Notes: generated by a model not told the origin, from the letters alone. A DNA stretch of 37,189 nucleotides from Nitrospirota bacterium (GCA_040758355.1 JBFLWF010000022.1:1-37189); one strand, 5' to 3'; shown: positions 2,658 through 28,968, counted from the stretch's first letter. Numbers and translations: made by a program.

Positions 2658-2867
2658 ATTAAGCGCTCCTAAACTATGAATATATGTCATGCATGGCGAA
2701 AAGACTTTAAACCCCGCACTTGTTAAAACATTTATCTTGTATCCGTCATCTACTACATTGGATATTTGTTGGATGATGCATTTATTATCTCTCATATTCA
2801 CTTGAACCAACACTTTTTAAAGTCTTTGAGCCGTGCCTGACATATATAAAATCGCTCATTTTATGTT
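2650..2867. repeat. Bulged-hairpin element, copy B, carrying a 128-bp core (2700-2827)
   Basis: Arms align with copy A. The core is bounded by AAAGACTTTA/TAAAGTCTTT and is homologous to 28805-28932. Confidence 0.85.
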
Positions 2868-2878
2868 TAATTTTGCTA

Positions 2879-4618
2879 TTACCAGCTCCTGTACCTGTTC
2901 GTTATCGGGAATCTCCTGTCCCTGCCGAATGCCCTCGGAGTTATCTTTATTCCCGGTGGAGACTGCCTTCTCTTGTATTCGCTGGTATCCACCATCTTGA
3001 TGACCTTTCTTGCACACTCCTCTTCGCAGCCGAGATTGACTATCTCGTCAAAGCTCCTGTCTTCTTCTATATATGCCTTTAGTATAGGGTCGAGAATTTC
3101 ATAAGGAGGTAAGGTATCGGTATCCTTCTGACCTGGTTTTAATTCAGCAGATGGCTCTTTCAATAAAACCCTTTCGGGTATTATAACCCTTCCTTCCTTC
3201 TGGTTTTTCCATTTGCATATCCCGTACACCAGTGTCTTTGGAACATCTTTAATTACAGCAAATCCACCTGCCATATCCCCATAGAGGGTTGCGTATCCCA
3301 CGCTCATCTCAGATTTATTCCCTGTTGTCAGTACGAGCCACCCGAATTTATTGGAAAATGCCATGAGGATATTCCCTCTTATACGCGCCTGAAGGTTTTC
3401 TTCTGTTGTGCCAACCGGCATATCCTTGAATTCCGGTTTTAATGTATTCAGATAGGTCTCAAAAATATTATTGATATGCACCTCAATCACATTTATTCCG
3501 AGATTCTTTGCAAGCCCATATGCATCCTCCCTGCTCTCCTTTGAGGTATACGGTGAAGGCATGAATACTCCTGTAACATTGTCCTTACCTATGGCATCTA
3601 CAGCAATGGCAGCAACCAGAGAAGAATCTATTCCTCCGCTTAAACCAATGCACACCTTTTTAAATCCGTTCTTGCAAACATAATCCCTTGTGCCGAGGAC
3701 AAGGGCATTATAGACCTCTTCTTCCAAAGAGTAAGGAAGCGCAGTAGTGCAGAGATGCGGAAACGACTTCCGTGCTCCTGCACTTCCGATCTCCCGCTCT
3801 ATGGTTATCCTTTCCACCATCCCCTTTCCCAGTGCAATAACCTGCTGTCTCCTGCGCGGGTTGTGCAGCCTCTTCATGAATACCGCATCCAGATCCAGAT
3901 CAACGATGATCAAATCCTCGTCAAATTGCCTGGCTGAAGCAATGACCTCTCCATCATGGTCAACTACAAAACTCCGCCCGTCAAAGATAAGTTCGTCCTG
4001 TCCTCCAATGGTATTCAAATAAGCCACAATGACGCTGCTGTCGGATGCACGCGTGGATAACATCTTCTCCCTGAAGCAGGTCTTTCCGATATGATAAGGG
4101 GAGGCATTGATATTGATTATAAACTCTGCGCCTGATAATGCCTGAATGGTAGCAGGCCCCTCAGGATACCAGATATCCTCGCAGATATTGACGCCGAAAA
4201 TTACGCCATCCATCTTATATACGGGATACCTCGTCCCTGCCTGAAAATACCTGTATTCATCGAACACGCCGTAATTAGGCAGGTGCACCTTATGGTAAAC
4301 ATCGATAATCTCTTTTTTGTGGATAATTGCAGCGGCATTGTATATGTCGTCCTTTTTATCCACGAACCCCACGATTACGACAAAATCATCTACCCTCTCC
4401 TGAATCTCCCTCAGGGCATTTAAGTTGTCTTCTATGAACTGGGGTTTTAAAAGCAGGTCTTCAGGCGGATAGCCTGTGATGGCGAGCTCTGGAAAGGCTA
4501 TTATATCGGGATTGTATTTGCCGGCATCCCCGATGAACTTGATTATCTTTTTAACATTCCCACTAAAATCGCCGACTGTCGGGTTAATCTGGCAAAGGGC
4601 AATCCTCGCTGTTTTCAT
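2879..4618 (-). CDS. nadE: Glutamine-dependent NAD+ synthetase
   Basis: Nitrilase domain ([20 protein letters not shown]) plus synthetase domain ([29 protein letters not shown]). Confidence 0.95.
3735..3788. repeat. Head-to-head degenerate 8-mer repeats forming a hairpin, in frame within the nadE interdomain linker
   Basis: ggaagcgcagtagtgcagagatgcggaa ... ttccgtgctcctgcacttcc, encoding [18 protein letters not shown]. Confidence 0.6.
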
Positions 4619-4635
4619 GTAATGATTTTACCACA

Positions 4636-5298
4636 CTACTCTACCCATTTCACTATTTCATTGATATCGATCCTGTCGGTCCTGAAGCTGTTTGCCTTAT
4701 CTGCAAGGTCTGGATAACCAATAGATATGCCTAAAACAAGCCTCTTTGATTCTGGTATGCCGAGGAATTCCTTAACAACAAAGGAATAATCGGTAAGAAA
4801 TGCCTGCGGCACAGTTCCAAGACCATTTGCATGGGCTGCAAGCATAAGGCCATGTGCAAACAGACCCATGTCGAACAATGACCAGAGCGGAAGGGAAGCA
4901 TCCTGAAAAAGAAATATGCCATGGGGAGCTCCGTAAAACCTGAAATTCGCTATCTTTGCCTTCTTTATGTATGCCGGCTCGCTAAAATCTATACCGAATT
5001 TCTCGCTCCTCTTCCTGAAAAGCTCCCGTATCCTCAGGTCGATATGAGAAGGCCATGATTCAGGTTCGGGGATATCGGGCTTTGGTTTTTCACCACTTTC
5101 GAAAATATCCACAAGCCGCTTTGATAGTTCATCTTTTTTTGCGCCGGACACTATTACAGCCTCCCATGGCTGTGTATTCTTATAAGAAGGGCTCCTCTTC
5201 GCTGTATCAAAAACATCCATGAGTACTTCCTTCGGTACAGGCTCAGGCTTGAACTTTCTGATGCTCATCCTCGTCTTAATGCATTCAACCGCGTCCAT
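4636..5298 (-). CDS. Nitroreductase family protein
   Basis: RMSIRKF, SPSYKNTQPW and GLGTVPQ...GYP motifs. Confidence 0.9.
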   Translation of the reverse strand: MDAVECIKTRMSIRKFKPEPVPKEVLMDVFDTAKRSPSYKNTQPWEAVIVSGAKKDELSKRLVDIFESGEKPKPDIPEPESWPSHIDLRIRELFRKRSEKFGIDFSEPAYIKKAKIANFRFYGAPHGIFLFQDASLPLWSLFDMGLFAHGLMLAAHANGLGTVPQAFLTDYSFVVKEFLGIPESKRLVLGISIGYPDLADKANSFRTDRIDINEIVKWVE

Positions 5299-5359
5299 AA
5301 CTCCTCCTATAGTTCTGATAGTATGGCAAGGCTGTTTCGATGCAAAACTTCTGGGTTCT

Positions 5360-5881
5360 CTAAGGGCGAAGAATGCTAAGCAGCCTTCTCGCCATCATAA
5401 AGATTCTCAAATATTTTTCGTCCTGATAATCTTTATATGTATTTATGTGCGGAATAAATTGACCTTTTTTAAAGATCAATGTCACCTCTGCATAAATACC
5501 GTCCTTAAGATATATTCTGTGGGAATAATCCTTTGTAGAGGCAAGTACGATCTTTGCCGGCGTCAGATAACCGGGATCAAGATTAATATTCCTTTTTCCA
5601 TCAGATGAAAGATTTTTCTCTATCTCATTCGTTGTCAGTTTTATTGTGGAGAGGTTTTCCTGTTCCATCAGGTTTTTGAAAAATATAAACCTCCTGTAGA
5701 CAGGCTCGCCCAGTTCATCTTTATAATAGTCTGAGAATTCCCACCTTATTACAGGAGTCTCCATAACAATCTCTCCGAATATCCTTTCCAGTGATTGTCG
5801 TGCCTCAATGTAATAATCTTCGTTTGAAAAGAGGGTGCCTATAAAGAGAAGTGCTTTCTCAGGAGGGGTTGGGGATCCCAT
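5360..5881 (-). CDS. DUF4416 family protein
   Basis: DYYKDELG, RNINLDPGYL and ASTKDYSHRIYL..GIYAEVTL motifs. Confidence 0.8.
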   Translation of the reverse strand: MGSPTPPEKALLFIGTLFSNEDYYIEARQSLERIFGEIVMETPVIRWEFSDYYKDELGEPVYRRFIFFKNLMEQENLSTIKLTTNEIEKNLSSDGKRNINLDPGYLTPAKIVLASTKDYSHRIYLKDGIYAEVTLIFKKGQFIPHINTYKDYQDEKYLRIFMMARRLLSILRP

Positions 5882-5889
5882 CTACTCAT

Positions 5890-6414
5890 TCACTCATTAA
5901 CAAGCTTAGCAATGAATGCCCTTACATCAGGTGAGCCCCAATTGATAGGGCCGACTACCTTTTCCTTTATTATTCCATTCTTGTTTATCACAAAGGTCTC
6001 GGGAACGCCTGTAATTCCGTATTCCCGCGATACATTTTTATCATCGATCAGCACAGGGAAGTTAAACCCGTTCGCCTTCATATATTCCATCACACTTGAA
6101 GGATTGTCTTTGTATAGCACAGAGATAAAAACAAGATTGCTGTTTCCCTTTTCGGCCTCCACGAGGCCCTGAATGGATGGGTTCTCCATCCGGCAGGTGT
6201 CTCACCACGACGCCCAGAAATGAAGGAGAACAGTCTTCCCCTTCAAATCAGACATCCTCCATATTTTGCCTTCCATATCTTTCAACTCAAACGCAGGCGC
6301 ATCGAGTCCTTTAGCTGCGTGTTTCTGCGGATGCTCTCCGGTTCTTGCAAGAAAAAGCACCGCTGCTATGCCCACAGCAAAAACAACCGCCAATACAAAT
6401 CCTTTGCTCTTCAT
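5890..6414 (-). CDS. TlpA/ResA-family thiol:disulfide oxidoreductase, selenoprotein (Sec at UGA 6202-6204, UxxC)
   Basis: ORFs 6202..6450 and 5890..6189 are in the same frame: TTC TGG GCG TCG TGG TGA GAC ACC TGC = FWASW-U-DTC, with cis-Pro motif GVPET downstream. Total 174 aa from the ATG at 6414, which has a GGAG RBS. Confidence 0.88.
6163..6201 (-). promoter_or_regulatory. Putative bacterial SECIS hairpin
   Basis: Upper stem GGAUGG-AGAAC-CCAUCC begins 10 nt after the UGA; lower stem CCUG/CAGG; G in the apical loop. Confidence 0.7.
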
Positions 6415-6429
6415 ATAATCTCCATGAAA

Positions 6430-6480
6430 TAAGTCATTGCAGTTACTCAATTACTTAATTTCTTAATGACTTAATGACTT
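6430..6480. repeat. Degenerate tandem 8-mer repeat (TGACTTAA-type) with one inverted unit
   Basis: taagtcatt ... ttactcaa ttacttaa tttcttaa tgacttaa tgactt. Confidence 0.75.
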
Positions 6481-8933
6481 TAATTGACCGATACCAGCAT
6501 CGATTCTTCTGCTTCCACAAAAACAGGCTTATCATGTTCGAGGTTTACCTTTACCACAGGCGTATTCTTGAACCTGCCCTTTATCAGTTCCTCGGAGAGG
6601 TAATCCTCTATTTCGCGGGCAATGGCCCTTCTCATCGGCCTTGCGCCATAGGCGGGCTGATAATATTTATTGAGCAGCCATTCTTTAACCTCGGGAGATA
6701 CATCTATGGTCAATGCATGCTCTGTAAGCTTCTTATTTGTCTCTGTCAGCAGGAGATCGACAATCGACAACAGGTGCTCCTTTTCCAGCGGATGGAAGAC
6801 TACTGTCTCATCGACACGGTTAAGGAACTCCGGATTAAAGGTCTTCTTCAACTCGGACAGAACATTGTCCTTCATCTTGTTGTATGCATCTTCTGACGAT
6901 GCCCTGTAAAATCCAAGCGGTGTTGCCTTTTCGATAATCCTCGCACCCAGATTGGATGTCATAATGATTATGGTATTCCTGAAATCCACTTTTCTGCCGT
7001 AACTGTCCGTAAGCACTCCTTCATCCAGTATCTGGAGGAGCATGTTAAAGACATCCTGATGCGCCTTTTCTATCTCGTCAAAAAGGATTACCGCGTATGG
7101 CCTTTTGCGAATCTTCTCTGTAAGTTGTCCACCCTCTTCATAACCCACATAGCCTGGAGGTGCGCCTGTCAGGCGTGATACATTGAACCTCTCCATGTAC
7201 TCTGACATGTCGAGCTTCACGAGTGCGCTTTCGTCATTGAACATGAACTCTGCAAGGGTCTTTGCAAGCTCTGTCTTTCCAACGCCTGTCGGGCCGAGGA
7301 AGAAGAATGAGCCGATTGGCCTGTTCTTGCTCTTCAAGCCCGCCCTTGACCTGCGGATTGCCTTTGCCACAGCCTTTATGGCATCGTCCTGTCCGATTAT
7401 CCTCCTGTGCAGGGTCTCTTCCATTTTCAAAAGCTTCTCCGACTCTGCCTCTTCAAGCTTATAAAGCGGTATACCTGTCATCTTCGAAACAGTGTATGCT
7501 ATGTCTTCCTCTCCCACAACAGGAACTTCCTTGTTCAAAGAATCCTTCCACTTCTTGTACTGAAGTTCATAGGTTTTTTTGAGTCTGTCTTCCTGAGCCC
7601 TGATAGCCTGGGCCTTTTCTATATCGTGCAGTCTCACATAGAGGCTCTTTTCCTTTGCAAGTTGAATCAACTCGGTTTCCATATCCCGCAGATCCTGAGG
7701 GGTTGTTGCCCTTTTGAGCTTAAGCCTCGAACCTGTTTCATCAATCACATCTATCGCCTTATCAGGCAGGTATCTGTCTGTTATATACCTGTCAGAGAGC
7801 TTTGCTGCGGCCACAACTGCTTCGTCGCTGATCTTCACCTTGTGGTGGCTCTCATACTTGGGCCTTATGCCTTTTAAAATCTCGATAGTCGTATCTTCGC
7901 TCGGCGCCTGGATATAAATGGGCTGGAATCTCCTCTCAAGGGCGCCGTCCTTCTCTATATATTTCCTGTATTCATCGGGTGTAGTCGCACCTATGCACTG
8001 CAGCTCTCCCCTTGAAAGTGCAGGCTTCAGCATATTGGATGCGTCAACAGATCCTTCTGCAGCACCGGCTCCGATAAGGGTATGAAACTCGTCGACAAAC
8101 AGGATGATATTCTTGTCAGACTGCAGTATCTCGCGCATTACTGCCTTAAGCCTCTCCTCAAACTGGCCCCTGTATTTTGTACCGGCAATAAGGGCGCCGA
8201 GGTCAAGGGATATTATCCTTTTCCCTATGAGGCTGTCGGGCACGTCTCCCACAATTATCTTCTGTGCGAGCCCTTCTACAATGGCGGTCTTTCCGACACC
8301 CGGCTCTCCGATTATGGCAGGGTTGTTTTTCAGCCTTCTGCCAATGACCTGAATTACACGCTCTATTTCGTCCTCCCTGCCTATAACAGGATCGAGTTTT
8401 CCCTCGACAGCAAGGAGTGTGAGGTCCCTGCCGAATTCATCGAGGGCAGGCGTGTTTGTCTTCCTGCGCTCTTTCTGGTGTGTCTGCTGGAATTGCGGTT
8501 TAATGGCAAGGTTTATGGTCAGCTGTCTTGCACCGAGCAGATTCGCACCAAGATTTCTGAGTATCTTGCCCCCAATGCCTTCGTCTTCCCTGATAAGGCC
8601 TAAGAGGAGGTGTTCGCTTCCTATGTAGTTGTGGCCTAAAAGCCTTGCCTCTTCTATGGAGAGCTCAAGGACCTTCTTTGCCCTTGGGGTAAAGGGAATA
8701 TCCCCGAATGTCAAAAGGTTGCTGCCGACAGGCAGGTTTCTTTCCACTTCAAATCTTATTTCATCTATGGACAGCCCCATCTTTTTAAGTATGGTGATGG
8801 GAACGCTGTCTTCTTCCCTTAATATAGCCAGAAGGAGATGCTCTGTGCCCAAGTAGTCGTTATTTCTTCTCTCGGCCTCTTCTTTGGCGTATATTATTAT
8901 CTTTCTTCCTCGTTCTGTAAATTTCTCAAACAT
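6480..8933 (-). CDS. clpC: ATP-dependent Clp protease ATP-binding subunit ClpC
   Basis: Two Clp-N repeats (EHLLL), two AAA+ modules ([16 protein letters not shown]), short middle domain, ClpP-docking LGF loop. Confidence 0.93.
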
Positions 8934-8992
8934 CTCTATTCTCCTTGGATAGTCTCTATAAAAATATTACTCGTTTTAAATAAAGGTTGTCA

Positions 8993-9027
8993 ATCTTGTA
9001 TCCTTAATCCGTTATCCTGTATCCTTT
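8993..9027. repeat. Degenerate tandem 7-mer (ATCCTGT)n in the clpC/priA divergent intergenic region
   Basis: atcttgt atcctta atccgtt atcctgt atccttt. Confidence 0.7.
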
Positions 9028-9032
9028 CTATT

Positions 9033-11900: not shown

Positions 11901-12493
11901 AACCTGCTGTAAATCTCCTCAACCTGTCTTCTCGTATTTTCAAGGTCCCTGCTGTTGTCTATTGCAAAATCAGACTTGCTGATCTTCATTTCTATGGGAA
12001 ACTGGCTTTTCAGTCTTTTCCTTGCATCTTCTTCGGATATTCCTTTCTCTTTAAGACGGTTGATGGCAATCTCCTCCGATGCATATACAGTTATTATTTT
12101 ATCAAATCTGTTCTGATAACCCCTTTCAAATATCACAGGCGCCTCCACTATAACAATGGCAGCGGAATCTGTTATTTTAGCAATTTCTTCGTCAACTTTT
12201 TTGAAAACCCTCGGATGCAGAATGTTTTCAAGGGAAATCCTGAGATGGGGATGTTCAAATACAATTTCAGCAAGCATCCTTTTATTTATTTCTGACGGCT
12301 GACCGCTGATGGCTGACTGCTGAATTATATCTTCTCCAAATGCCTTTTTAATCTCATAAATTACCGTAATGTCCTTAAGGAGTTCGCGAACTATGTCGTC
12401 TGTGTGAATGACAATAGCGCCAAGATCCCCGAACATCCGGGCCACCGTGCTTTTGCCCATTCCGTAATTTCCTGTGAGGCCTATAATTATCAT
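11897..12493 (-). CDS. coaE: Dephospho-CoA kinase
   Basis: GLTGNYGMGKSTV P-loop, LENILHPRV, EAPVIFE. Confidence 0.93.
   Translation of the reverse strand: MIIIGLTGNYGMGKSTVARMFGDLGAIVIHTDDIVRELLKDITVIYEIKKAFGEDIIQQSAISGQPSEINKRMLAEIVFEHPHLRISLENILHPRVFKKVDEEIAKITDSAAIVIVEAPVIFERGYQNRFDKIITVYASEEIAINRLKEKGISEEDARKRLKSQFPIEMKISKSDFAIDNSRDLENTRRQVEEIYSRL
12292..12323. repeat. Tandem 7-mer (CAGCAGT-type on the minus strand) in coaE
   Basis: ctgacgg ctgaccg ctgatgg ctgactg ctga, encoding QQSAISGQPS. Confidence 0.8.
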
Positions 12494-16954: not shown

Positions 16955-17920
16955 TCATTTATACAAAAACAAATGATCATTCTCTTTTTGTTTGAAAGTC
17001 CGTTTCCCATTACCATTTCCTCTAATTTCAGGAGGACAGAATTCCTCAAATCTAAAACGTGATCCTTTCAAATACTCTTCTACGAGTTCAAAAGCTATCC
17101 AGCGTCTATTTAATTTTTCTGCAACTTCACCTGTTACATTTGACCCTGCAAATGGATCAAGAACAAAGTCATTAGGTTCTGTCAGAAATTTTATAAAGAA
17201 CTCCGGAACACCAGCAGGATACCTGGCTGGATGAGGTTTAAGTCCAAATTGGCGGCAAGCCCTCAAATATTTACTATTTGATTCTGTATTTGCTATTTCG
17301 AGTAAATTAGGAGGTATAGATCCTCCATTATCCCGACTGAATTTTGTTGAAATATCATGACCACTTGGTCTAAGTTTAGCTTTATACCCTCGTTTGAGTA
17401 ACCCCTGCATACTATCGCTGTAAGGCTGCAATACTTTACGATTATTAGCCTTAGGATGCGGATCCTTTGAAAGCCACCATATACAATCAACAGCATCTTT
17501 TACACGCTCTCGCCTGACATTTACCCATTCTGCTGGAGTTGGTAGTCGGGCAGGATTATACCAAAAGAATTCTTGTGCTAAATAAAATTTACGGACAGGC
17601 ATCTTGCAAAGAGCAAGAAGTAGCTCATAATGATACAGACTTCTTACAGGTTTCCCTGGTATCCAACTCCCGCCTATATCAATAACCAAACTACCATTAG
17701 GTTTAAGAATGTCATAAAATTTTTCTGCAAACGGTAAAAACCACTCAATATACTTTTCAGCATCAACATTGCCATATTCCTTTTTTCGTCTCAAGGCAAA
17801 AGGAGGTGAGGTCATTATTAAATCAACAGTACCATCTTCAAAAATATCAAACAATTCAATCGCATTCCCCAAATATGCTAAACCACATTTTGTTTTATAA
17901 TACGGCTTATATTTCTTCAT
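16955..17920 (-). CDS. Beta-class DNA methyltransferase, M.PvuII-like (probably N4-cytosine)
   Basis: TSPPFAL.RKKEYGN, WVN.R..RVKDAV, RPSGHDI...FS.DNGGSIPPNLL, HPAR and DPFAGSN, all recalled as closely matching M.PvuII. Confidence 0.9.
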   Translation of the reverse strand: MKKYKPYYKTKCGLAYLGNAIELFDIFEDGTVDLIMTSPPFALRRKKEYGNVDAEKYIEWFLPFAEKFYDILKPNGSLVIDIGGSWIPGKPVRSLYHYELLLALCKMPVRKFYLAQEFFWYNPARLPTPAEWVNVRRERVKDAVDCIWWLSKDPHPKANNRKVLQPYSDSMQGLLKRGYKAKLRPSGHDISTKFSRDNGGSIPPNLLEIANTESNSKYLRACRQFGLKPHPARYPAGVPEFFIKFLTEPNDFVLDPFAGSNVTGEVAEKLNRRWIAFELVEEYLKGSRFRFEEFCPPEIRGNGNGKRTFKQKENDHLFLYK

Positions 17921-17926
17921 ACCTAT

Positions 17927-19291
17927 TCAAATCTCCAACTTTTTAATTTGCATAGCTCTTTTTGCTTCTCTATCAAGAACTGTAGAAATATACATAGGAT
18001 TTCCCTTTATCTTTTCAAGATCATTCCTATCGACAAGTATAATATCCAGATTTGTGGTATTCATTACATGATTGGCAAACCTGCGTGCATCGTCACTTAT
18101 ACTGCCCGTAGACACAACCATTATTACATTTGATTTAAGCTGATGGGTAAGCCCAACTTCTTTTGCAACATCATCAAGGGAGACTATACGAGTGTTTTTG
18201 CACTGTATTTGCCATCTACTGAAAATAAACCGCGTACCTTCAAATATTAAATCTATTTCTGCGCCTCCGGTAGTTTCTCCTCGCAAACGAGTAGCAATAT
18301 AGGTTAAATCTACCAATCGCATCAAATAGAATGCTAAAGCCTCAAGGGCCAATCCTTTAATATGTTTGCTCTTATGGGTAAGGTCTTTTAAAATATCTTT
18401 TAATGGTTTTCTTAACATCGGTCTCAAATCAGATACAGCCTGTTTTTCTAAAGCTTCAAGTAGTGGTGCTATCACCTCATTTTTCAGCTTTTCGGTTGGT
18501 TTAACTATGAATGACTTGGCTCCACGTCCTCCTGTTGGTTTTGTGATTTTAATATATCCAATATCTTGTAAAGGATATAAAACCTGTTTAGGCAGCATCT
18601 TCTCATTGTATTTAATGCCGTAAAGTTGGGTAGCCAATCGTTCAATTTCGTTTGCAGGAAAAGATTTCTCACCGGGAATATTTGCTAAGGCTTTTAGATA
18701 TGCCTTCTGTTCTTGTGAAAGCACCGCAAGGATATCAATTTCCGTTGTTCCAACACCTAAAAGGGATTCTAATATAGAATGGTCAATCTGCCAATCGGTT
18801 GATATAACAAGACCTGCCTTTTCCAACCATAATCTCATACTGCTCATACCAACAGAACCACGGGGAACATGAATCCCCCTTTCTTCAAGCCATTGACGAA
18901 ATTTTACAAGATCAAAGCGCTCAGCTCTTGCTTGCATATCCTGTGCTGTCTGGACTAAATCCAATCCTCTCAGGTTGAGTAGAATATGCTGAGCAAAACG
19001 TTTATAAAGTTGTGGGGGATTATCTTTTAATGATAGAAGTTCTTTTCCTAACTCGGTTAAGTTACCCTCTCTGTCTATAATTCCATAGGCAATCATTCCA
19101 AGAGCAGTATTCATTGCGAGCTTTGCTTGATTATAAGCATCTTTGCCCTTGGCACTGAAAAATTCTCGCTGTATTACTGCCTCCAATTCTTTTCGATCGC
19201 CCTCGTGTTTTTCACATAAATCAAGCAATTTGGGTAAATCAATCTGGCTGGGTGAAAACTGAGCGCCAAAAGGAATATCGCTTCTTTCCAT
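17927..19291 (-). CDS. Restriction endonuclease with a C-terminal Mrr-type PD-(D/E)xK domain
   Basis: LALEALA..., EIDLIF...WQIQCKN, VAKEVG, VVSTG, IILVD; 6 nt from the methylase gene. Confidence 0.8.
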   Translation of the reverse strand: MERSDIPFGAQFSPSQIDLPKLLDLCEKHEGDRKELEAVIQREFFSAKGKDAYNQAKLAMNTALGMIAYGIIDREGNLTELGKELLSLKDNPPQLYKRFAQHILLNLRGLDLVQTAQDMQARAERFDLVKFRQWLEERGIHVPRGSVGMSSMRLWLEKAGLVISTDWQIDHSILESLLGVGTTEIDILAVLSQEQKAYLKALANIPGEKSFPANEIERLATQLYGIKYNEKMLPKQVLYPLQDIGYIKITKPTGGRGAKSFIVKPTEKLKNEVIAPLLEALEKQAVSDLRPMLRKPLKDILKDLTHKSKHIKGLALEALAFYLMRLVDLTYIATRLRGETTGGAEIDLIFEGTRFIFSRWQIQCKNTRIVSLDDVAKEVGLTHQLKSNVIMVVSTGSISDDARRFANHVMNTTNLDIILVDRNDLEKIKGNPMYISTVLDREAKRAMQIKKLEI

Positions 19292-19323
19292 AAAATATCT
19301 CCTTTATATTTTTGATGCGTTTA

Positions 19324-19503: not shown

Positions 19504-19546
19504 AAGTTACTCTATTCTCCTACTGTCGGCGATAAGCATAGTGGGG

Positions 19547-20870: not shown

Positions 20871-20887
20871 TTTTTAGAGGCAATGCT

Positions 20888-21163
20888 TTGAGAATAAGAG
20901 ATTTCAAATGGGATGACGGCAATGTGCTGCACATTGAACTCGGACACGGGGTTAAGCCTGAAGAAGCAGAGGAGGTATTTGCAGTAAAACCCCTGTTTCG
21001 CAAAACAAAAAAGGGACATTATGTTGCAATGGGGCCAACTCTTGACGGTAGATACCTTACAATAGTTTTTGAACTAAAAAATAACGGTATCGCCAGAATA
21101 ATTACAGGCTGGGACATGACCCACGCAGAAAAGGGGTTTTGGAGTAAACATAAACACAAGTAA
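20888..21163 (+). CDS. BrnT-family toxin
   Basis: F.WD..N..H....HGV..EAEEVF, GRYLTIVF, RIITG. TTG start at 20888 follows GAGG. Confidence 0.8.
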   Translation: MRIRDFKWDDGNVLHIELGHGVKPEEAEEVFAVKPLFRKTKKGHYVAMGPTLDGRYLTIVFELKNNGIARIITGWDMTHAEKGFWSKHKHK

Positions 21164-21169
21164 TTCATT

Positions 21170-21475
21170 GTGGAGGAACAAAAAATGAAGACAACAAAAA
21201 TAAAAAAAGAAATAACCGATGAACAGTACTATGACACTCATGGCGTACTCACAGACATGATTGATGAGGATATTGACCTTAGCCTTGACGAAGAACTCAG
21301 ACAGGATATTTTGAAAGGAAAAAGAAAGAGAAAGCTCAGGAATATCTCAATAAAGATAGATCCCCTGTACCTTCAATTTATTAAAAAAATTGCCACATCA
21401 AAAGGCATTCCTTATCAGACACTCGTGAGATTGTGGCTTACCGAAAAAATCGGAAAGGAATTAAAAATAGCTTAA
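21170..21475 (+). CDS. BrnA/CopG-like ribbon-helix-helix antitoxin
   Basis: Acidic N-terminus and C-terminal ISIKID...IKKIA..KGIPYQTLVRLWL; directly after the toxin. Confidence 0.8.
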   Translation: MEEQKMKTTKIKKEITDEQYYDTHGVLTDMIDEDIDLSLDEELRQDILKGKRKRKLRNISIKIDPLYLQFIKKIATSKGIPYQTLVRLWLTEKIGKELKIA

Positions 21476-21481
21476 TAAAGT

Positions 21482-22393: not shown

Positions 22394-22452
22394 ATTTCCT
22401 CTCGCTTTATTATATAATAAACAAATTTTCCAACTTCCCGAAAATATATGTA

Positions 22453-22962
22453 ATGATGGTAAAAAGAATAATATCCTTAACCGCCATATCGATATTAAGC
22501 TGTTTACTCTTTTCCTCAATCACGTTGGCAACATTGCCCAAGGCCGATAAGATAATTGTTATCAAAGGCAAGAGAGTCCTGATATTATTGAAAGACAGTG
22601 AAATAATAAAAACATATAGGATCGCTCTCGGTAAAAGTCCAGATGGCCGCAAGACTCAAACAGGAGACCAGAAAACCCCTGAAGGAAATTACATCATAAC
22701 TTCGAGAAACCAGCACAGCAAGTATTATAAGGCAATCAACATATCGTATCCCAATGAATCCGACATACAAAATGCCAGAAGGCTCGGCGTGTCTCCGGGC
22801 AACAGCATAGCGATTCACGGCCTGCCAAAGGATCTGGAAGATATTGATAAATTTCACAGACGCCTTGACTGGACAGACGGGTGCATTGCTGTTACGAATC
22901 ACGAGATAGATGAAATCTGGCAGCTCGTTTCAGACGGCACGCCAATAGAGATTCGTCCTTAA
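22453..22962 (+). CDS. L,D-transpeptidase (YkuD family)
   Basis: Signal peptide, GD.KTPEG.Y, ISYPN..D, catalytic IAIHG...WTDGCIA. Confidence 0.9.
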   Translation: MMVKRIISLTAISILSCLLFSSITLATLPKADKIIVIKGKRVLILLKDSEIIKTYRIALGKSPDGRKTQTGDQKTPEGNYIITSRNQHSKYYKAINISYPNESDIQNARRLGVSPGNSIAIHGLPKDLEDIDKFHRRLDWTDGCIAVTNHEIDEIWQLVSDGTPIEIRP

Positions 22963-23038
22963 AACAATTTTGTAAGGCAGGCACTGCGGAAAGCAGCACC
23001 TGCCTTACAAATCTGAATATAGATTCGCTTAGTTTAGA
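22963..23038. repeat. Bulged-hairpin element, copy C (inverted relative to A, no core); may also terminate the convergent genes
   Basis: Reverse complement ctaagcgaat-ctatattcagat-ttgtaaggcaggtgctgc-tttcc-gcagtgcctgccttacaa aligns with copy A. Confidence 0.8.
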
Positions 23039-23044
23039 TTAGAG

Positions 23045-24061
23045 TTATCTATAAATCAGATCGAACAAGTCTTCCGCACGCCTTGCATCAAGCTTATTCA
23101 GGATTATGTATTCTTCGTATGCAGCATCCTTGTCTCCGTTTAAATAATAGGCAATGCCCAGATTAAAATGAGTATCTGGATTTCTTGAGTCGATGCCTAT
23201 GGCCTGCTCAAGGGTGTCGAGTGCTGCCGAATACTTGCCGGTAACGATGTAGATAGTGCCGAGCTTATTGTAAATTGCCTGAAAATCCGGCTTAATCTTT
23301 ACGGCATGTTTATAAGCATCGATGGCATCGGAATATTTGCCGAGCTTGTAATAAACCGCACCTAAATTCACATAGGCATCCATGTAGTCAGGTTTAATCT
23401 TTAAAGCCCTTTTGTATGCCTCTGCAGCATCGGTATATTGGTTTGATCTCTCATACTTCAGGCCTTTCATAAAATATTCTTCGGCATTGTCTCTTTTCAC
23501 TTCTGATTTTTTTGCTGGTTTCCTGATTTCAACAGGCATTTCCGGCTTTTGTGGTTCTATTAGCTGTTTTGGTGCTTCAATCAATGGTTTTTGAGGCAAT
23601 TCTTTTTTTGCAAGTTTCTTATGTAATGCAATCTGCCTTTTGATATATTCTGAAGACCTGTAATCAGGGGGAAGCTGGACAGCAGCAAGCCCTTCTGCCT
23701 TTATCTCGAACAATGCTATATCATGCCTGCGGTTGTAAGATATTAATTTATTGATAGGATAAGAGCCTTTCCCTTCAGTCCTTACAATAAGCGCATATCC
23801 CACATCTTCGAGCCATTGAGAGATTATTTTGCAGTTCGTTGCTACTATTCCGTTACTGTCGACAATAAAGCCGCTTCCGGAGGCAACCTCGTTTCCATTC
23901 CTGTCATGGATTGAAATAACAACAACCGCCTTCTTCTGTTTCTGTGCGAAGTCGGGTATTCTGGCTTCTGCCAAAACAGCGAAGGAGGCTGTAAAAAAGA
24001 ATGAAACAAGAATGATAAGAACTATCCCTGAAAAACTTCTCTTCACTTCCATCCGTGACAT
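23045..24061 (-). CDS. Exported TPR protein with a degenerate N-terminal trypsin-like half domain
   Basis: GSGFIV...G.VATNCK, DIAL, a Pro/Lys linker, then about 4 TPR repeats. Confidence 0.8.
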   Translation of the reverse strand: MSRMEVKRSFSGIVLIILVSFFFTASFAVLAEARIPDFAQKQKKAVVVISIHDRNGNEVASGSGFIVDSNGIVATNCKIISQWLEDVGYALIVRTEGKGSYPINKLISYNRRHDIALFEIKAEGLAAVQLPPDYRSSEYIKRQIALHKKLAKKELPQKPLIEAPKQLIEPQKPEMPVEIRKPAKKSEVKRDNAEEYFMKGLKYERSNQYTDAAEAYKRALKIKPDYMDAYVNLGAVYYKLGKYSDAIDAYKHAVKIKPDFQAIYNKLGTIYIVTGKYSAALDTLEQAIGIDSRNPDTHFNLGIAYYLNGDKDAAYEEYIILNKLDARRAEDLFDLIYR

Positions 24062-24651
24062 CCGTAGCAGAATGTGCTTCTGTCATTATGTCTCAAAAAG
24101 AATTGATTATCGCTTACGTGAGGGTCATGACAGCTCGAACATTCAACCCTGCCGTTCCTTAGCAGATCGGCTATGATGCCTGCACCTTTCCATCCCGAGA
24201 GCGTCGCACCCCTCGGCTTCAGGTGTCTGCTGCGCTCATTATAGGCAATGGATACCGTATGATGATTACGCGTGCTGCCTATTTCATCAGCAGACTGGAT
24301 TATCTGCGAATGTGTCAGATTACTTTTTTGCCATGCCTTTTCGTCAATGTTCAGGTTATACGCCTGTGTTCCGTCATGGCAGGAAAGGCATACCTTTGAC
24401 AGCGTATTAGGGGATGTATCTTCGGTTACTCCAGCCATGCTCGTTCCATATGTGGAATAGACTGCCGGTTTGGCCTCCTTGTTCCAGGTCTGAACGCTGC
24501 TTAGCTCTGTATGCGGGGTATGACACCAGATGCAGACCTCCACCTGATGTTTGTGTGAAAGATTATGCTTTGTGTTTTCGATTCCTGCAAATGCTACACA
24601 GGCATATAAAAGCAATGCCGCTGATATCGCAACCTTGATTTTCCTGTTCAT
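24043..24651 (-). CDS. Tetraheme c-type cytochrome, OmcE-like
   Basis: Signal peptide; CIWCH, CLSCH, CSSCH, CYGCH; IENTKHNLS, CHTPH, CHDG and FLR motifs. Confidence 0.85.
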   Translation of the reverse strand: MNRKIKVAISAALLLYACVAFAGIENTKHNLSHKHQVEVCIWCHTPHTELSSVQTWNKEAKPAVYSTYGTSMAGVTEDTSPNTLSKVCLSCHDGTQAYNLNIDEKAWQKSNLTHSQIIQSADEIGSTRNHHTVSIAYNERSRHLKPRGATLSGWKGAGIIADLLRNGRVECSSCHDPHVSDNQFFLRHNDRSTFCYGCHGWK

Positions 24652-24722
24652 AATATAATCCCAGATCCAGCGATAAGGATGGGTCTCTGTAGTGAATAGC
24701 TTAACATGCCGGCATAAAAATT

Positions 24723-26819
24723 TTATATTCCTAAAACAATCTCCCTTTCCTCCATATCAACCCTGTCGATCCTTACCTTCAATTCCTTGCCTATTGTGAA
24801 TCTCTTTTTCCTGTGAACTCCGTGAAGGCTCAGGCTCTTTTCATCATACTGATAAAAATCATCGGCCATATACGATACATGGAGAAAACCCTCTACATAA
24901 TAGTCCTTAAGCCTTATCTTCAGGCCGTATGGCGTAACAGAGACGACCTTTCCTTCAAATTCCTCTCCTACCTTATCCCTCATAAACCATACCCTCATGG
25001 CACTCAGAACAGCCCTCTCTGCCTCATCCGCCTGCCTTTCCATCCTCGATGAATGGAATGCAATATCAGGCAAAAGGGATTCCAGTTCCTTGATTCTCTT
25101 ATCACCGAGATGTTTTTTAGTTAAAACCTCCCTCAATATCCTGTGTACAACAAGGTCAGGATACCTTCTGATAGGCGAGGTAAAATGGCTATAGCTTTTG
25201 GAGGCCAGTCCAAAATGTCCTACGTTCACTGCAGAATACCTTGCTTGTTTCAGGCTCCTCAGTATCATGTGATTTATTATCTCCTCTTCAGGAGTGCCCT
25301 GAATCTGCTTGATCAGGTCAGAGAAGTCTTTTGGAGCTATAGTCTTTGTCCTTTTCAGAATTCTCAGAGAGCTTATGATTTTCATAATGCCTTCGAGCTT
25401 CATTGGATCAGGCTCTTCGTGTATCCTGTAAAGGCTTGGAATATTAAGGGCTTCGAGATGCCCTGCAACAGCCTCATTTGCAGCGATCATGAACTCCTCT
25501 ATTATCATGTGTGCAAAATTTCTCTCTGCCCTTATTATGTTCTCAGGATTTCCCTGAATATCCAGAAGCACCTCTGGCTCTGGCAGGTCGAAATCGAGGC
25601 TCCCCCTTTTAAGCCTGCGTGATTTCAGGATATTGCACAACTCTCCCATCATCTCAAAATCCTGAAGCAGATAATCGTATTTTTGTCTTTCCTTTCGGTC
25701 TTCATCCACGAGTATCTTCTTCACAGATGTATATGTCATTCTCTCATTGCTGTTGATAATGCTGGGATAAAATCTTGCATCGGTCCGCTCGCCATGCATG
25801 TCAAAATCCATCTCAACGGTGAAGGCCATCCTTTCCACTTTTGGTCTTAAACTGCACAAGTCCTCCGAGAGTTCCTTTGGAAGCATGGGGATCACCCTGT
25901 CAGGAAAATAAACGCTCGTCCCCCTTTTCCTTGCCTCCTTATCTATTAAGGAATCCCATCCCACAAAAAAACCTACATCTGCTATGTGCACCCACAGCCT
26001 GTAACCATCATCTGTTCTTTTGATTGATATGGCATCGTCAAAGTCCTTTGCCCTTTCGCCATCGATGGTTACTGTGGGAAGGCTGCACAGGTCTTTCCTT
26101 TTATGCTCTCTGTTTTTAAGCCCCTTTGCATAAAGGCTTTTCGCCTCTTCAATGACATTGTGGGGGAATCTTCTCGGCAGGTTGAATTCATCTATTATGC
26201 CTTCCACTTCATCGAGCGGTGTTTCCGGCTTTTCTAATATTTTTATTATCCTGCCCGCAGGCGGCCTTTTGTCAGATGGGTAGCTTATTATCTCTGCAAT
26301 TACGCTGTCTCCGTCCTTTGCCTTGCCTTTTTCTTTCGGGGCAATATAGAGGTCAAAGGGAACGGACCTGTTTTTAGGCCTGACATAAAATCCAGCCCTT
26401 CCGGCCTCGAATGTCCCGACCACGCGTGTATGCGCCCTTTCAAGTATTCGGATTATGGCGCCTTCCCTGCGGCGTCTGTTCTCGATCCTCGCAATAACCC
26501 TGTCGTTGTCCATTGCACCGAGGGTTGCCCTTGCAGGGATGAATACATCCCTCTCTCCAGGTTTTTCGAGTATCACGAATCCATACCCGTCCCTGTGCGC
26601 CTCAAAGTAGCCTGTAATAAGGTTCATCTCCTCGGCAGGGCCATAAAGGCCTTTCCTTGTCCTGACAATATCGCCGTCATTGACCATTTCCCTGAGAAGC
26701 CTTTTGAGTTTGCGCCTTTCGGGAGGGGTGAGATTTAAGTTATAGACGACCTCCATGAAGCTGAGGGGTTGTGTAACCCTTTCTTTAAAGAATGATATTA
26801 ACGAATCCTTTGTAATCAT
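24723..26819 (-). CDS. rnr: Ribonuclease R
   Basis: Cold-shock domains (HRDGYGFV), RNB domain (TIDGERAKDFDDAIS, HFTSPIRRYPDL), C-terminal S1. Confidence 0.95.
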   Translation of the reverse strand: MITKDSLISFFKERVTQPLSFMEVVYNLNLTPPERRKLKRLLREMVNDGDIVRTRKGLYGPAEEMNLITGYFEAHRDGYGFVILEKPGERDVFIPARATLGAMDNDRVIARIENRRRREGAIIRILERAHTRVVGTFEAGRAGFYVRPKNRSVPFDLYIAPKEKGKAKDGDSVIAEIISYPSDKRPPAGRIIKILEKPETPLDEVEGIIDEFNLPRRFPHNVIEEAKSLYAKGLKNREHKRKDLCSLPTVTIDGERAKDFDDAISIKRTDDGYRLWVHIADVGFFVGWDSLIDKEARKRGTSVYFPDRVIPMLPKELSEDLCSLRPKVERMAFTVEMDFDMHGERTDARFYPSIINSNERMTYTSVKKILVDEDRKERQKYDYLLQDFEMMGELCNILKSRRLKRGSLDFDLPEPEVLLDIQGNPENIIRAERNFAHMIIEEFMIAANEAVAGHLEALNIPSLYRIHEEPDPMKLEGIMKIISSLRILKRTKTIAPKDFSDLIKQIQGTPEEEIINHMILRSLKQARYSAVNVGHFGLASKSYSHFTSPIRRYPDLVVHRILREVLTKKHLGDKRIKELESLLPDIAFHSSRMERQADEAERAVLSAMRVWFMRDKVGEEFEGKVVSVTPYGLKIRLKDYYVEGFLHVSYMADDFYQYDEKSLSLHGVHRKKRFTIGKELKVRIDRVDMEEREIVLGI

Positions 26820-28744
26820 TGTTTCCTTTTAAACGCCCTTATCCTCTCCATTGCCCCATCCTGGTTGTGGAGAACTATTCCTTTGAGTTCTTTAAACCGT
26901 TTTTGCATTTTCTTATCCTTACCCTTAAGATAATTATCGAGGATTTTGAGTTCGTTATCAATTTTATTTGCAAACATCAGATATTTGTTGTATTTCTCCC
27001 TTTCTGCTTTTATGGAAAAATCACCTGGCATCTGCCACTTATCCTTAAGGAATATCCATGATGCAAAGTCCTCTAATTGATAGCCTTCGAGCAATTTAAT
27101 AGGGGTTGTATTTTTCATATCCACAACCCTTAACCCGTCCCTGTCAGCTATGATCTTATGCCCTCCCTTAAATGGCTCTGCTCCCTGATAATCCATGAAC
27201 TCCCATGTGGAGACCGCTGACTGCTGACTGCTGACCACCGGCTTTTTATGGCAGCTTTCACATTTCCTCGCCTTTCCGTATGGGTGGGCTGCCTGCTCAA
27301 TCTCAAACCATAATAAGTGTTTATTATTAGCAGTGGCATTAAAAGTCCCCACCACATAATATGCATCCCTTGTCTCTCCATTAGGCCATCTGAACATAAG
27401 TTTTTCAGATGGTTTGACATCCGGTTTGATATTGCCCACACTGTGGGGCCAGATCTTCACCGGCATCCATTTACCCTTCTGGTCTTTCATGAGTATGGGA
27501 GGGCCCTGAATGCCGTAATAAAGGGAATACTTCTTGAACGGGTTCTCCTTTCCTGCAATCAAACCCGGCCCCCATATGGTAATCTGATAACCCCTCAATT
27601 CACTTATATGACACGTTGCACAGTCCATATTCTTATGAATGCTCTTTTCATGGGCCTCCTCTATCTCTATGTGGCAGTCCTGACAATTGGCCTTTCTCTG
27701 CATGTCGCCCATTCCCTTTTCGCCTGTGGTATGGCAGTCAACGCAATGTATATCTTTTTTATAATGAACATCCGGGTTCATGCCTGTCGGTATCGAGTAA
27801 TCGCCTCCGATATAGGTCTCTCCCCGTCTGCTCTGCATCGCACCTGGATGGCAGATGCTCGTCCCCCTTCCGTATCCCGCACAGCTTATCGATGTGGGCT
27901 TGTTGGTAAAATTGTGAACTCCTTTTTTCCTGTCAGGTTCGTAGTGGCAGTCCAGACAGCCGGCATGACAGACATTGCAGAATTTCTGTTTCGCCACCGC
28001 CTGTTCTCTTGAAAAAGGGACATTAAGTTCTTTTCTTATATCTTCCGTATTTTTGAATTGAAAACCTGCGTTCCTTAAAACCTCCATTGGCGGCAGGTCG
28101 GCAAATGACGGCCCGCAGTTGTGAGGCCCGTATGGCTCAAGCCATGTCCTCATTGTCCTCTGCCTGAAATTTGTTGCCATGATGGTTGTCTTGAATTGCT
28201 TGAGCTCTTCTGGATGGCATCCTGATTTGCCGCAGGTCTTTTTTGCAATATTCGGATCAAAATTAAATGTCTTGGGATTCCTGTCGTGCCAGAGGACATT
28301 CCTTACATCCGGATGCGGCAAGAGTTCTCCGTCCTGCTCTATTTTCGGCAGCATCTGCCTTATCATGTCATTTCCTGACGGCAGCAGCGAATTTGGATAA
28401 ACTTCCTTTCTCTTAAGCACATTGCCATCGTCGTCTATTAACAAGACAGCAAGCATTCCCTTGTGAGCATTGTCCGGTTCCTTTGCCCTTCCATTGCCGA
28501 GGTGGCATTCATGGCACTTTACATTGGGATGTTTAGATTCCCTTTCAACCATCTCATGGGTCACATAAAACTGGGGATAGCCCAGTCTGGTCATCTTTTC
28601 TTTGTCAGAGTGGCATCTTATACATTCCACACTGGTATCCTTCCATGCCTTATAACTCAGAACGGTTATGACCAATAGAAATTGAACAACAAAAATAATG
28701 ACCGTTTTTTTATTGATATAATCGCTGATAGTCCCTATCTTCAT
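26816..28744 (-). CDS. Membrane-anchored multiheme cytochrome c
   Basis: N-terminal TM helix; 8 CXXCH (CIRCH, CHECH, CNVCH, CLDCH, CVDCH, CQDCH, CATCH, CESCH) plus CX4CH and CX9CH. Confidence 0.9.
   Translation of the reverse strand: MKIGTISDYINKKTVIIFVVQFLLVITVLSYKAWKDTSVECIRCHSDKEKMTRLGYPQFYVTHEMVERESKHPNVKCHECHLGNGRAKEPDNAHKGMLAVLLIDDDGNVLKRKEVYPNSLLPSGNDMIRQMLPKIEQDGELLPHPDVRNVLWHDRNPKTFNFDPNIAKKTCGKSGCHPEELKQFKTTIMATNFRQRTMRTWLEPYGPHNCGPSFADLPPMEVLRNAGFQFKNTEDIRKELNVPFSREQAVAKQKFCNVCHAGCLDCHYEPDRKKGVHNFTNKPTSISCAGYGRGTSICHPGAMQSRRGETYIGGDYSIPTGMNPDVHYKKDIHCVDCHTTGEKGMGDMQRKANCQDCHIEIEEAHEKSIHKNMDCATCHISELRGYQITIWGPGLIAGKENPFKKYSLYYGIQGPPILMKDQKGKWMPVKIWPHSVGNIKPDVKPSEKLMFRWPNGETRDAYYVVGTFNATANNKHLLWFEIEQAAHPYGKARKCESCHKKPVVSSQQSAVSTWEFMDYQGAEPFKGGHKIIADRDGLRVVDMKNTTPIKLLEGYQLEDFASWIFLKDKWQMPGDFSIKAEREKYNKYLMFANKIDNELKILDNYLKGKDKKMQKRFKELKGIVLHNQDGAMERIRAFKRKQ
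27212..27238. repeat. Tandem 7-mer (CAGCAGT on the minus strand) in the cytochrome gene
   Basis: gaccgct gactgct gactgct gaccac, encoding VVSSQQSAVS. Confidence 0.8.
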
Positions 28745-28758
28745 TTTGAGGCTTCAAC

Positions 28759-28968
28759 CAAAATTACGAAAGTATCACCTAACATACAACAGCAGGTGTT
28801 CATCAAAGACTTTACACTTTGAAATATTGCAAAACATTATCTTGAATCCGTCATCTACTACATTGCTCACTATTTGGATGAGACATTTATTATCTCTAAT
28901 ATGCATAAAGAATAACACTTTGTAAAGTCTTTGATGAACACCTGCTGTTGTATCATTCGTAATTTGAG
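28759..28968. repeat. Bulged-hairpin element, copy D, with a perfect 33-bp inverted repeat and the 128-bp core (28805-28932)
   Basis: ATACAACAGCAGGTGTTCATCAAAGACTTTACA (28784-28816) has its exact reverse complement at 28921-28953. Outer stem AAATTACGAA/TTCGTAATTT; 13-nt bulge. Confidence 0.9.

Follow-up and report, generated by a model that had tools for sequence, protein, structure and literature searches.

Core sequences in a Nitrospirota contig as probable apical cassettes of an intergenic long-hairpin repeat superfamily

Results

Elements in the window and the repeat unit

The window analysed here, a stretch of 37,189 nucleotides, is contig C22 of the 2.77-Mb, 93-contig genome (99% complete) of an uncultured Nitrospirota bacterium (G000, referred to below as the own genome). 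Its gene content is that of an ordinary chromosome, with mutS, a clpB-like gene, priA, nadE, genes for RNase R, FAD synthetase and multihaem cytochromes, and a restriction-modification pair; no tRNA or tmRNA was found in the window. Our subject is a family of palindromic elements, four of which lie in this contig: the long forms B and D, each built around a 128-bp core, and the short forms A and C. A first-pass annotation of the sequence had drawn attention to the two cores, at 2700-2827 and 28805-28932, and much of its description was confirmed. Both measure 128 bp and run from AAAGACTTTA to TAAAGTCTTT, their ungapped identity, estimated then at about 96/128, is exactly that, and ATCCGTCATCTACTACATTG, TGGATGA and CATTTATTATCTCT are identical in the two. 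As had also been reported, copy A (2317-2340/2347-2370, AAAG-n6-CTTT) has no core, nor does copy C (22963-23035).

The core is not the two-copy feature for which it had been taken. BLAST searches combined with a core profile revealed 60 matches in the own genome, located on at least 40 contigs, and 57 of these are near full length (123-132 bp, so that the claim of a conserved length is roughly right). We call this sequence core-1. In an alignment of 55 copies with 130-nt flanks, conservation spans from ACCTAA... to ...TTAGGT, giving the unit consensus ACCTAA-ATTGAGCGATTCTAA-TnTAAAA-ATATATGTCAGGTGCGGCGA-(AAAGACTTTAAAC ... TTTTTAAAGTCTTT)-GAGCCGTGCCTGACATATA-AAATCGCTCAAnTTAGGT, in which the part in parentheses is the core. 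As the sequence outside the core is conserved too, the unit measures about 215-230 bp. It is composed of inverted termini (ACCTAAATTGAGCGATT ... AATCGCTCAATTTAGGT in the B type), arms of about 45 bp, of which the left is about 10 nt longer than the right, a GA/AAAG...CTTT/GA neck and an apex, for which two states exist: a loop of 6-8 nt (short form) or a cassette of about 105-128 bp (long form). Accordingly, the arm spacing obtained with arm profiles, counted beyond the 10 core bases contained in each arm model, is bimodal, with about 0-11 nt in the 18 short forms of the own genome, copies A and C included, and about 100-113 nt in long forms. Wider spacings in the own genome represent only neighbouring elements.

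The termini of element B lie 48 nt 5′ and 39 nt 3′ of its core, and element A starts 3 nt past the stop codon of an upstream minus-strand open reading frame (ORF). Folded as DNA, elements B and D each form one long hairpin (z = −4.2 and −9.5, respectively, versus shuffles). Long hairpins at both cores had been described by the first-pass annotation and are present, but their outer arms are conserved parts of the repeat and not independent hairpins. No conserved ORF was found in the element: 97 of 128 copies lack a candidate ATG and an open frame exists in few. One minus-strand ORF (84917-85657) stands alone between two like-oriented core-1 elements at G000:C5:84711-85883. The features of the four elements are listed in Table 1.

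Table 1. Coordinates of the repeat elements and their parts in the 37,189-nt window.
Feature	Position	Strand	Remarks
Long-form element B	2652..2866	+	Left terminus ACCCAAATTAAGCGCTC (diverged), left arm, 128-bp core, right arm, right terminus AATCGCTCATTTTATGT
Core-1 cassette of element B (B-like subfamily)	2700..2827	+	96/128 identical to D core
Most conserved core-1 block ATCCGTCATCTACTACATTG in B	2741..2760	+	Information profile, 128 distinct copies
Left outer-stem arm of B, including GA/AAAG neck	2680..2711	+	32 nt, 88% complementary to 2816-2847
Right outer-stem arm of B	2816..2847	+	Pairs with 2680-2711
Long-form element D (D-like subfamily; other arms and termini, compensating changes)	28757..28970	+	Termini located
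Core-1 cassette of element D	28805..28932	+	
Conserved block ATCCGTCATCTACTACATTG in D	28846..28865	+	
Left outer-stem arm of D	28784..28816	+	33 nt, 100% complementary to 28921-28953
Right outer-stem arm of D	28921..28953	+	Pairs with 28784-28816
Short-form element A	2293..2392	+	B-type termini and arms, apex GAAAAG-AGGCGG-CTTTGAG, no core
Short-form element C	22963..23035	-	GTAAGGCAGG arm type, no core

Subfamilies and structure of the core

The two window cores differ at 32 core positions (11, 14-16, 18, 20, 22, 23, 25, 26, 30-32, 41, 62-64, 66, 68, 69, 78, 79, 94, 99, 102-106, 108, 109 and 118). The first-pass annotation had seen these differences cluster in three blocks, and 23 of the 32 do fall inside them, although the blocks make up only 32 of the 128 positions (hypergeometric P = 2.6e-11, for blocks picked post hoc). 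Over 128 distinct copies from the own genome and its relatives, the blocks vary by 0.84-1.08 bits versus 0.51 bits elsewhere. Within the main B-like subfamily (95 copies), however, blocks 1 and 2 do not stand out, with 0.43 and 0.37 bits versus 0.42 bits elsewhere. Thus, the clustering is real for the pair B and D, but much of the block pattern reflects divergence between subfamilies and not hypervariability.

Arm types include ATATGTCAGGTGC (B), GTAAGGCAGGTGC, GGCAGCAGGTGTGC (D) and others, each time with matching changes on the opposite arm. Arms and cores have diverged together: their distances are correlated (Mantel r = 0.79, a value reached in 0 of 999 permutations) and arm clusters correspond almost one-to-one to core clusters. 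The consensus fold of the 128 distinct copies consists only of the outer stem and a 12-bp stem at the core ends. It comprises 26 pairs with 96.4% canonical cells and at least two Watson-Crick types at 17 pairs; pair 11/118, for example, is A-T in 93 copies and C-G in 29. In the reading orientation, i.e. the one in which the cores were first described, 245 G-T cells face 44 A-C cells, mostly owing to one inherited tandem wobble.

Inside the core, neither a conserved secondary structure nor covariation was found across the 128 copies. Instead, it is the primary sequence that is conserved, chiefly CTTG-ATCCGTCATCTACTACATTG and TTATC. The ATCCGTCATCTACTACATTG block is asymmetric and conserved across subfamilies and genera; AGAGATAAT is a conserved block as well. 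High mutual information between core columns is a subfamily signal. Two internal hairpins considered as candidates, TCATCTA/TGGATGA and GTATCC/GGATAC, are not preserved across subfamilies. The former had been proposed by the first-pass annotation to close around the middle variable block, and its pair 48/76 is formed in just 47% of the copies. Between copies of the own genome, no pair reaches 95% identity; the nearest paralogues are at most 93.9% identical and the median nearest neighbour is 87.4% identical.

Alternative cassettes at one apex

Searching with the arms for units without an adjoining core-1 led to a second, unrelated cassette, core-2, of about 125 bp with at least 15 copies. A third one, core-3, is unrelated to both, measures 112 bp and occurs in 2 copies. 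All three cassettes have the same AAAGNCTTTA...TAAAGNCTTT boundaries and occupy the same apex position above the same GA/AAAG neck on the outer stems. The boundary 9-mers, in which pair 5/124 is A-T in 91 copies, A-G in 30 and never A-A, are inverted and not direct repeats and hence do not constitute a target-site duplication. Termini of the type CCATAATCCGTAA/TTACGGATTATGG enclose core-1 in some copies and core-2 in others, and short forms are known for the B, D and E arm types. The neck is the sole feature common to all members in every lineage.

Nested inserts were observed at several places. The G004:C74 orthologue of element B (L046) carries a tandem small palindrome inserted in its right arm, several core-2 copies on G003:C1 have about 75-100 extra bp at their centre, and at G000:C46:8947-9086 a palindromic insert stands in place of the core-2 centre.

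Placement between genes

Flanking genes were taken from crude ORF calls (2462 ORFs, 90% coding). Among the 57 long copies, both flanking genes run opposite to the reading orientation in 35 cases and with it in 6, while 9 copies lie between divergent and 4 between convergent genes, 2 at a contig edge and 1 inside an ORF call. The 18 short forms show the same preference, with 14 opposite, 1 with the genes and 3 others. In 12 of the 14 short forms that run opposite to their flanking genes, one end of the element coincides to within −4 to +8 nt with the upstream stop codon, and from the other end it is 5-47 nt to the next start codon. This spacing indicates that the elements occupy the gap that separates a stop codon from the ribosome-binding site of the following gene. 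As genes follow the GC skew in 73% of cases, the orientation bias could also stem from the direction of replication.

Simple scans around A/B and D detected no more promoter- and terminator-like sites than in shuffled sequences. Contigs from the RNA libraries X19 and X20 cover 2802-3128, the junction between element B and nadE, and 2448-2662. These few contigs tell neither strand nor transcript ends and may derive partly from DNA, so that they do not establish transcription of the element, and stretches outside them are uninformative.

Distribution among relatives

We compared 41 genomes: the own genome, 24 relatives of the same family and 16 members of other families of the Thermodesulfovibrionales. 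Core-1 occurs in 10 of them including the own genome, i.e. in 9 of the 24 same-family relatives (one by a lone weak match) and in 0 of the 16 from other families. All four other genomes of the genus contain it, as do five further genera of the family, one of these being the genus with the single weak match. Core-2 was found in 11 of the 41 genomes, a set that overlaps with that of core-1 but differs from it. G016 has many core-2 copies and no core-1, G019 shows the reverse, and G001 has almost no core-2.

A degenerate version of the conserved 20-mer, scanned against one genome per species, gave many hits in metagenome-assembled genomes labelled Thermodesulfovibrionales, Nitrospirae or Nitrospirota. 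Single hits in unrelated phyla are compatible with chance, about 35 being expected over 596 Gb by our own estimate. Plasmid and phage collections gave no match; a lone viral-contig hit to the degenerate 20-mer was dismissed as chance, because it did not match the core model. Rfam 15 returned no match at gathering scores in the window, and the four matches at eight loci with core-1 and core-2 were at chance level (E = 0.76-2.2), all below the gathering score. A narrow keyword search of the literature found no account of such repeats in Thermodesulfovibrionales.

Turnover at syntenic sites

Presence of the elements varies between close relatives. Site B is occupied in the own genome, in G002 and in G004, the diverged arms being shared by all three, and is empty in G001, G003 and G022. 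The short form at site A is absent in G001-G004. No equivalent element was found at site D in G001, G003 and G022, and G004 retains only a right half. For a systematic comparison we used 24 elements of G002 and G004 whose flanks are syntenic in the own genome, after exclusion of three non-syntenic cases and one duplicate row. At 8 of these sites the own genome lacks the whole unit of about 200-225 bp, at 11 it has a core-1 element and at 1 a short form of another arm type. The remaining 4 hold other sequence, which in 3 cases is a further palindromic repeat family. Not one of the 24 comparisons revealed the same arms with and without the core. As whole units come and go, and arms and core co-diverge, the data do not present the core as a separate element jumping into ready-made hairpins.

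The further repeat family has ends like CCCATAGATAAGGATAAGTCTCT and is represented by 37 BLAST pieces in the own genome. It lies at G000:C8:13931-14110, C1:115562-115913 and C12:9213-9542, and a 29-nt fragment is found in the window at 24672-24700. The spacers it fills in the own genome are exactly those that in G002 contain a core-1 element. Yet other units, resembling CAGAAGACAGA, adjoin site B. A 46-nt arm composed of them at 2607-2652 of the window pairs with a distant copy at 33601-33646; the empty site B of G001 contains a full local hairpin of these units, of which our window keeps only the left arm beside element B.

Conservation of orthologous copies

At 11 shared sites, the elements are identical to 0.986, 0.963, 0.954, 0.954, 0.879, 0.861, 0.845, 0.786, 0.778, 0.776 and 0.703, versus 0.81-0.89 for third codon positions in the flanking genes. 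The low values represent different subfamily members at the same site. Five orthologous pairs were pooled, namely four of the shared sites and site B compared with G002, all chosen post hoc for an identity of at least 0.94. In this set, 1047 of 1084 element positions are identical (96.6%) versus 1252 of 1553 four-fold degenerate sites (80.6%; Fisher P = 2.5e-38), and the figure for codon positions 1 and 2 is 97.1% (7761/7992). Since the closest paralogue in the own genome reaches 93.9%, recent re-insertion of a common master copy does not account for the high identity of these orthologues. We read this as purifying selection acting on at least some copies.

Discussion

Taken together, the cores are probably the apical cassettes of a lineage-specific superfamily of non-coding, intergenic long-hairpin repeats that resembles REPINs, BIMEs and ERIC sequences. 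The family is a new example of a familiar class of bacterial miniature repeats and not a guide-RNA system. Its spread might be envisaged as follows. A trans-acting enzyme that recognises the hairpin by its termini and neck would copy whole units, short or long, into new spacers, with single-stranded DNA as the probable substrate. Such an enzyme, acting on a folded single strand, is suggested by the strand bias, the absence of duplications and the conservation of neck and termini, the mode of copying being our inference. The apex would be a permissive place for the rare capture of passenger cassettes. Once inserted, copies may persist under selection for a benefit to the host or its transcripts, for instance as intercistronic RNA hairpins, as terminators or, via the conserved 20-mer, as binding sites. 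Slowly evolving orthologues, together with strict rules of placement and orientation, suggest that many copies are used by the host.

A number of observations weigh against this reading, above all those concerned with movement. Direct repeats that would indicate a target-site duplication do not flank any of 32 copies with recognisable termini, and the polymorphic sites show none apart from one possible imperfect 9-mer at L065. Junctions at polymorphic sites are neither sharp nor reproducible, and the empty site L066 retains about 10 nt resembling an element end. With neither duplications nor clean junctions, some of the empty sites may have arisen by deletion of a palindrome instead of never having been filled. 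As no two copies in the own genome are at least 95% identical, recent copying is not apparent either. The plus strand folds just slightly better than the minus strand, being ahead in 35 of 56 copies. Where gene direction and GC skew disagree, 4 of 7 informative copies follow the gene and 3 the skew, so that the two causes of the orientation bias are inseparable. The excess conservation, too, comes from pairs selected for high identity: over all 11 shared sites the element averages 0.862 versus 0.845 for third codon positions.

The lack of an enzyme belongs to the same side of the balance. That the window holds no cognate enzyme, as the first-pass annotation stated, is true, and no mobilising enzyme for the element was found in the own genome as a whole. 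An autonomous long version with an ORF between the same termini, which that annotation had proposed to look for, was likewise not found in the own genome, whose 93-contig assembly may miss insertion sequences. Family searches for TnpB (PF07282) and IS110 (PF01548) gave no match in the own genome. It does contain two genes for Y1 (IS200-like) transposases of about 220 aa, homologues of which are widespread in the order. One of them (G000:C10:9216-9881) is intact and has its own inverted repeat; the other (G000:C21:12713-13383) is frameshifted and has its own 22-bp inverted repeats. These repeats, AAATAGGGACAGCGAC... and ATTAGGGACACATCCCCTATTT, are unrelated to the element. An element lies near a Y1 gene only at the frameshifted C21 locus, about 600 bp off, and at 0 of 10 loci of homologues in the own genome and relatives. 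The scan behind this covered 11 loci besides C21, namely the second own-genome locus, counted under two identifiers, and 9 homologues in relatives. Close Y1 homologues occur in G009, G016 and G023, all of which lack core-1. Given the unrelated inverted repeats and a distribution that does not follow the element, we rejected a link to Y1 or RAYT transposases.

Among the alternatives, the one that deserves most attention, even if we consider it rather unlikely, is that the elements are mainly RNA-level parts of the host, such as intercistronic or 3′-end hairpins by which transcripts are ended, stabilised or processed, or cis-regulatory or small RNAs with the 20-mer as their binding site, and that their spread is secondary. 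The bias with respect to gene direction (35:6 in long and 14:1 in short forms), the placement right after stop codons and closely ahead of the next start, and the conservation of orthologous copies far above that of four-fold sites would all fit such a role. In the B-type consensus, moreover, the hairpin on the gene-sense strand is followed by a T run, and the RNA-library contigs over the B/nadE junction and at 2448-2662 add weak evidence. However, D-type arms have no T run, the simple scans gave no terminator-like site and promoter-like sites only at shuffle level, and there is no Rfam match. The core shows no conserved structure or covariation beyond the outer stem, and the strand that folds more readily by its G-T excess is antisense to most flanking genes. 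A single RNA function also fails to explain three unrelated cores in one architecture. Improbable, in our judgement, is a parasite of a parasite, in which the cores are separate miniature elements that insert into the short-form apex (AAAG-loop-CTTT). It would account for short forms with B, D and E arms, for three unrelated cassettes in exactly one place with the same boundaries, for one terminus type with either core-1 or core-2, and for the nested inserts at core-2 centres in G003 and at G000:C46. Nevertheless, arms and cores co-diverge, at none of the 24 syntenic sites do equal arms occur both with and without a core, the boundary 9-mers are arranged as inverted repeats and hence are no target-site duplication, and simple insertion into the short-form loop does not yield the long form. 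The related suggestion of the first-pass annotation, a miniature inverted-repeat transposable element (MITE) that targets hairpin apices, nevertheless comes near to what we observe: there is a multicopy, polymorphic, non-coding palindromic repeat with alternative apical cassettes and short forms without any, but the core is not seen to move alone.

Two further explanations invoke known recombination systems. That the integron integrase of this genome moves the elements, which would then be dispersed attC-like sites or cassettes lacking an ORF, appears very improbable to us, in spite of several attractive features. The integrase at G000:C3:122521-129324 (L201 4522-11325) scores 423.5 bits with TIGR02249, well above the curated cut-off of 265, and is followed up to the contig end by small same-strand ORFs with attC-like inverted repeats, i.e. 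a cassette-like array. The elements, in turn, are imperfect hairpins in fixed orientation right after stop codons. The consensus of attC is 5′-RYYYAAC ... GTTRRRY-3′ at the hairpin foot, and the termini ACCTAAA/TTTAGGT match these boxes at 6 of 7 positions, but most copies do not have the conserved G/C of the GTT/AAC triplets. The attC-like sites of the genome's own array look different, and the elements are not arrayed beside intI but scattered among housekeeping genes on at least 40 contigs. IntI scored above the cut-off in 15 of the 41 genomes. It is present in many genomes that have no elements, and it was not found in the element-rich genomes G002, G003 (one contig, 100% complete), G004, G006 and G018, a further point on the debit side of enzyme-driven spread. 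The least probable explanation, with next to no likelihood left, is the one favoured by the first-pass annotation, in which targets are specified by the variable blocks of the core, this being either the gene of a guide- or bridge-type RNA or a recombination site with multiple subsites. Conserved blocks do alternate with more variable ones, and the core is asymmetric with one very conserved block. Yet the variable blocks follow subfamilies, and their k-mers (k = 7-10) match their own flanks no better than those of other copies, a comparison which that annotation had itself put forward. For 8-mers, the mean was 0.79 in own flanks versus 1.16 for other copies, and 185 of 200 shuffles reached the own value. 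The core has no conserved internal fold and no Rfam match, the 99%-complete genome has no IS110 or TnpB family gene, and the roughly 60 cores lie among housekeeping genes, none next to a recombinase. The bridge RNA of IS110 and the guide RNAs of TnpB or IscB are distinguished by a position adjacent to a recombinase or nuclease gene and by variable loops that pair with target or donor DNA; here, neither such a neighbour nor an excess of matches in own flanks was found.

The repeat superfamily with apical cassettes remains our preferred reading, and it can be carried further to a more daring variant, which we regard as doubtful. Here, the hairpin would be a scaffold with an exchangeable apical cassette that has been adopted by the host. 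The invariant block of 20-24 nt in core-1, and the different blocks of core-2 and core-3, would be putative docking sites for trans-acting protein or RNA factors, and the approximately 60 sites behind stop codons in one orientation would be tied into a network of control or genome organisation. Linked to this, the neck might be the recombination site of a hairpin-specific enzyme that swaps cassettes. If true, such a network of docking sites would explain why orthologues evolve as slowly as amino-acid-changing positions.

Miniature palindromic repeats have been well studied in Proteobacteria, Neisseria, pneumococci and cyanobacteria. BIMEs of Escherichia coli are mosaics of REP and other conserved motifs, some of which bind IHF. 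Like them, the present elements consist of inverted palindromic units around an internal conserved motif with alternative internal modules, and they lie between co-directional or convergent genes inside transcripts as BIMEs do. In contrast to BIMEs, they belong to another host phylum and are unrelated in sequence, their arms are much longer and form a single long hairpin with a 128-bp apex, and the conserved 20-mer fits the IHF consensus poorly. ERIC or IRU sequences of enterobacteria are imperfect palindromes of about 127 bp with size variants that arise through internal deletions and insertions; they are not known to have a transposase. Both are imperfect palindromes of intergenic regions that are transcribed, in our family presumably so, with size classes due to an internal segment at a fixed place. 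Sequence and hosts are unrelated, however, and the Nitrospirota family has three internal cassettes and a conserved neck motif. With classical MITEs of DDE insertion sequences the family shares inverted termini, but not a target-site duplication of fixed length.

REPINs are described as REP doublets that form hairpins and are mobilised by RAYT tyrosine transposases (Bertels and Rainey 2011, PMC3116915). As far as outlined in that account, they resemble our family in being non-coding, extragenic hairpins of about 100 nt or more, with tens to hundreds of copies and no ORF, in their persistence within lineages, in the compensating changes in their two arms and in the predicted folding of single-stranded DNA or mRNA. 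Unlike the REPINs outlined there, our family has arms that form one continuous long stem with an asymmetric internal loop, not REP-like palindromes with a GTAG/CGTC tag. CGTC and CTAC occur within the element only inside the conserved apex block of core-1. Moreover, no RAYT gene is flanked by elements of the family, the Y1 genes of the own genome having other inverted repeats, and most copies carry a conserved, asymmetric apical cassette of 105-128 bp. GTAG- and CGTC-tagged REP families, along with families of terminal inverted repeats associated with RAYTs, were described by Di Nocera et al. (2013, PMC3733652). From what is presented there, these palindromes likewise lie mostly downstream of coding regions, between unidirectional ORFs, where they are plausibly transcribed, and some families have no dedicated transposase. 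RAYT genes with long inverted repeats unrelated to the abundant repeats exist in both cases. On the other hand, the units in that description measure 20-40 bp, and the tags, which in our family are at the apex, stand unpaired at the foot of a small hairpin. Membership among REPIN/RAYT systems fails on two defining features, and attC sites and guide RNAs also fail on defining features.

The modular build of the family is clear, with a scaffold, a conserved neck and three alternative apex cassettes, and the family is retained in several genera. In some orthologous pairs the conservation of the element is close to that of non-synonymous positions, a hint at a use for the host. As none of the usual enzymes (RAYT, IS110, TnpB or integron integrase) goes with the family, it offers a tractable case for studying the spread and the role of such repeats. 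In practical terms, the repeats explain contig breaks and can be used as lineage markers in metagenomes.

Further observations in the window

Apart from the hairpin family, the window contains intergenic arrays with a period of 8 bp (TTACTTAA / TTATTAAG and variants) at 2245-2287, 6440-6497, 34626-34660 and 34694-34751. One of these, in the rubrerythrin leader, directly adjoins element A and has no counterpart there in G001-G004. A 7-nt unit (GCTGACT and variants) forms arrays at 12280-12323, 27212-27248 and 30272-30322, within coding sequence or close to it. At 16955-19291, an N6/N4 DNA methylase gene adjoins a gene with an Mrr-type restriction endonuclease domain.

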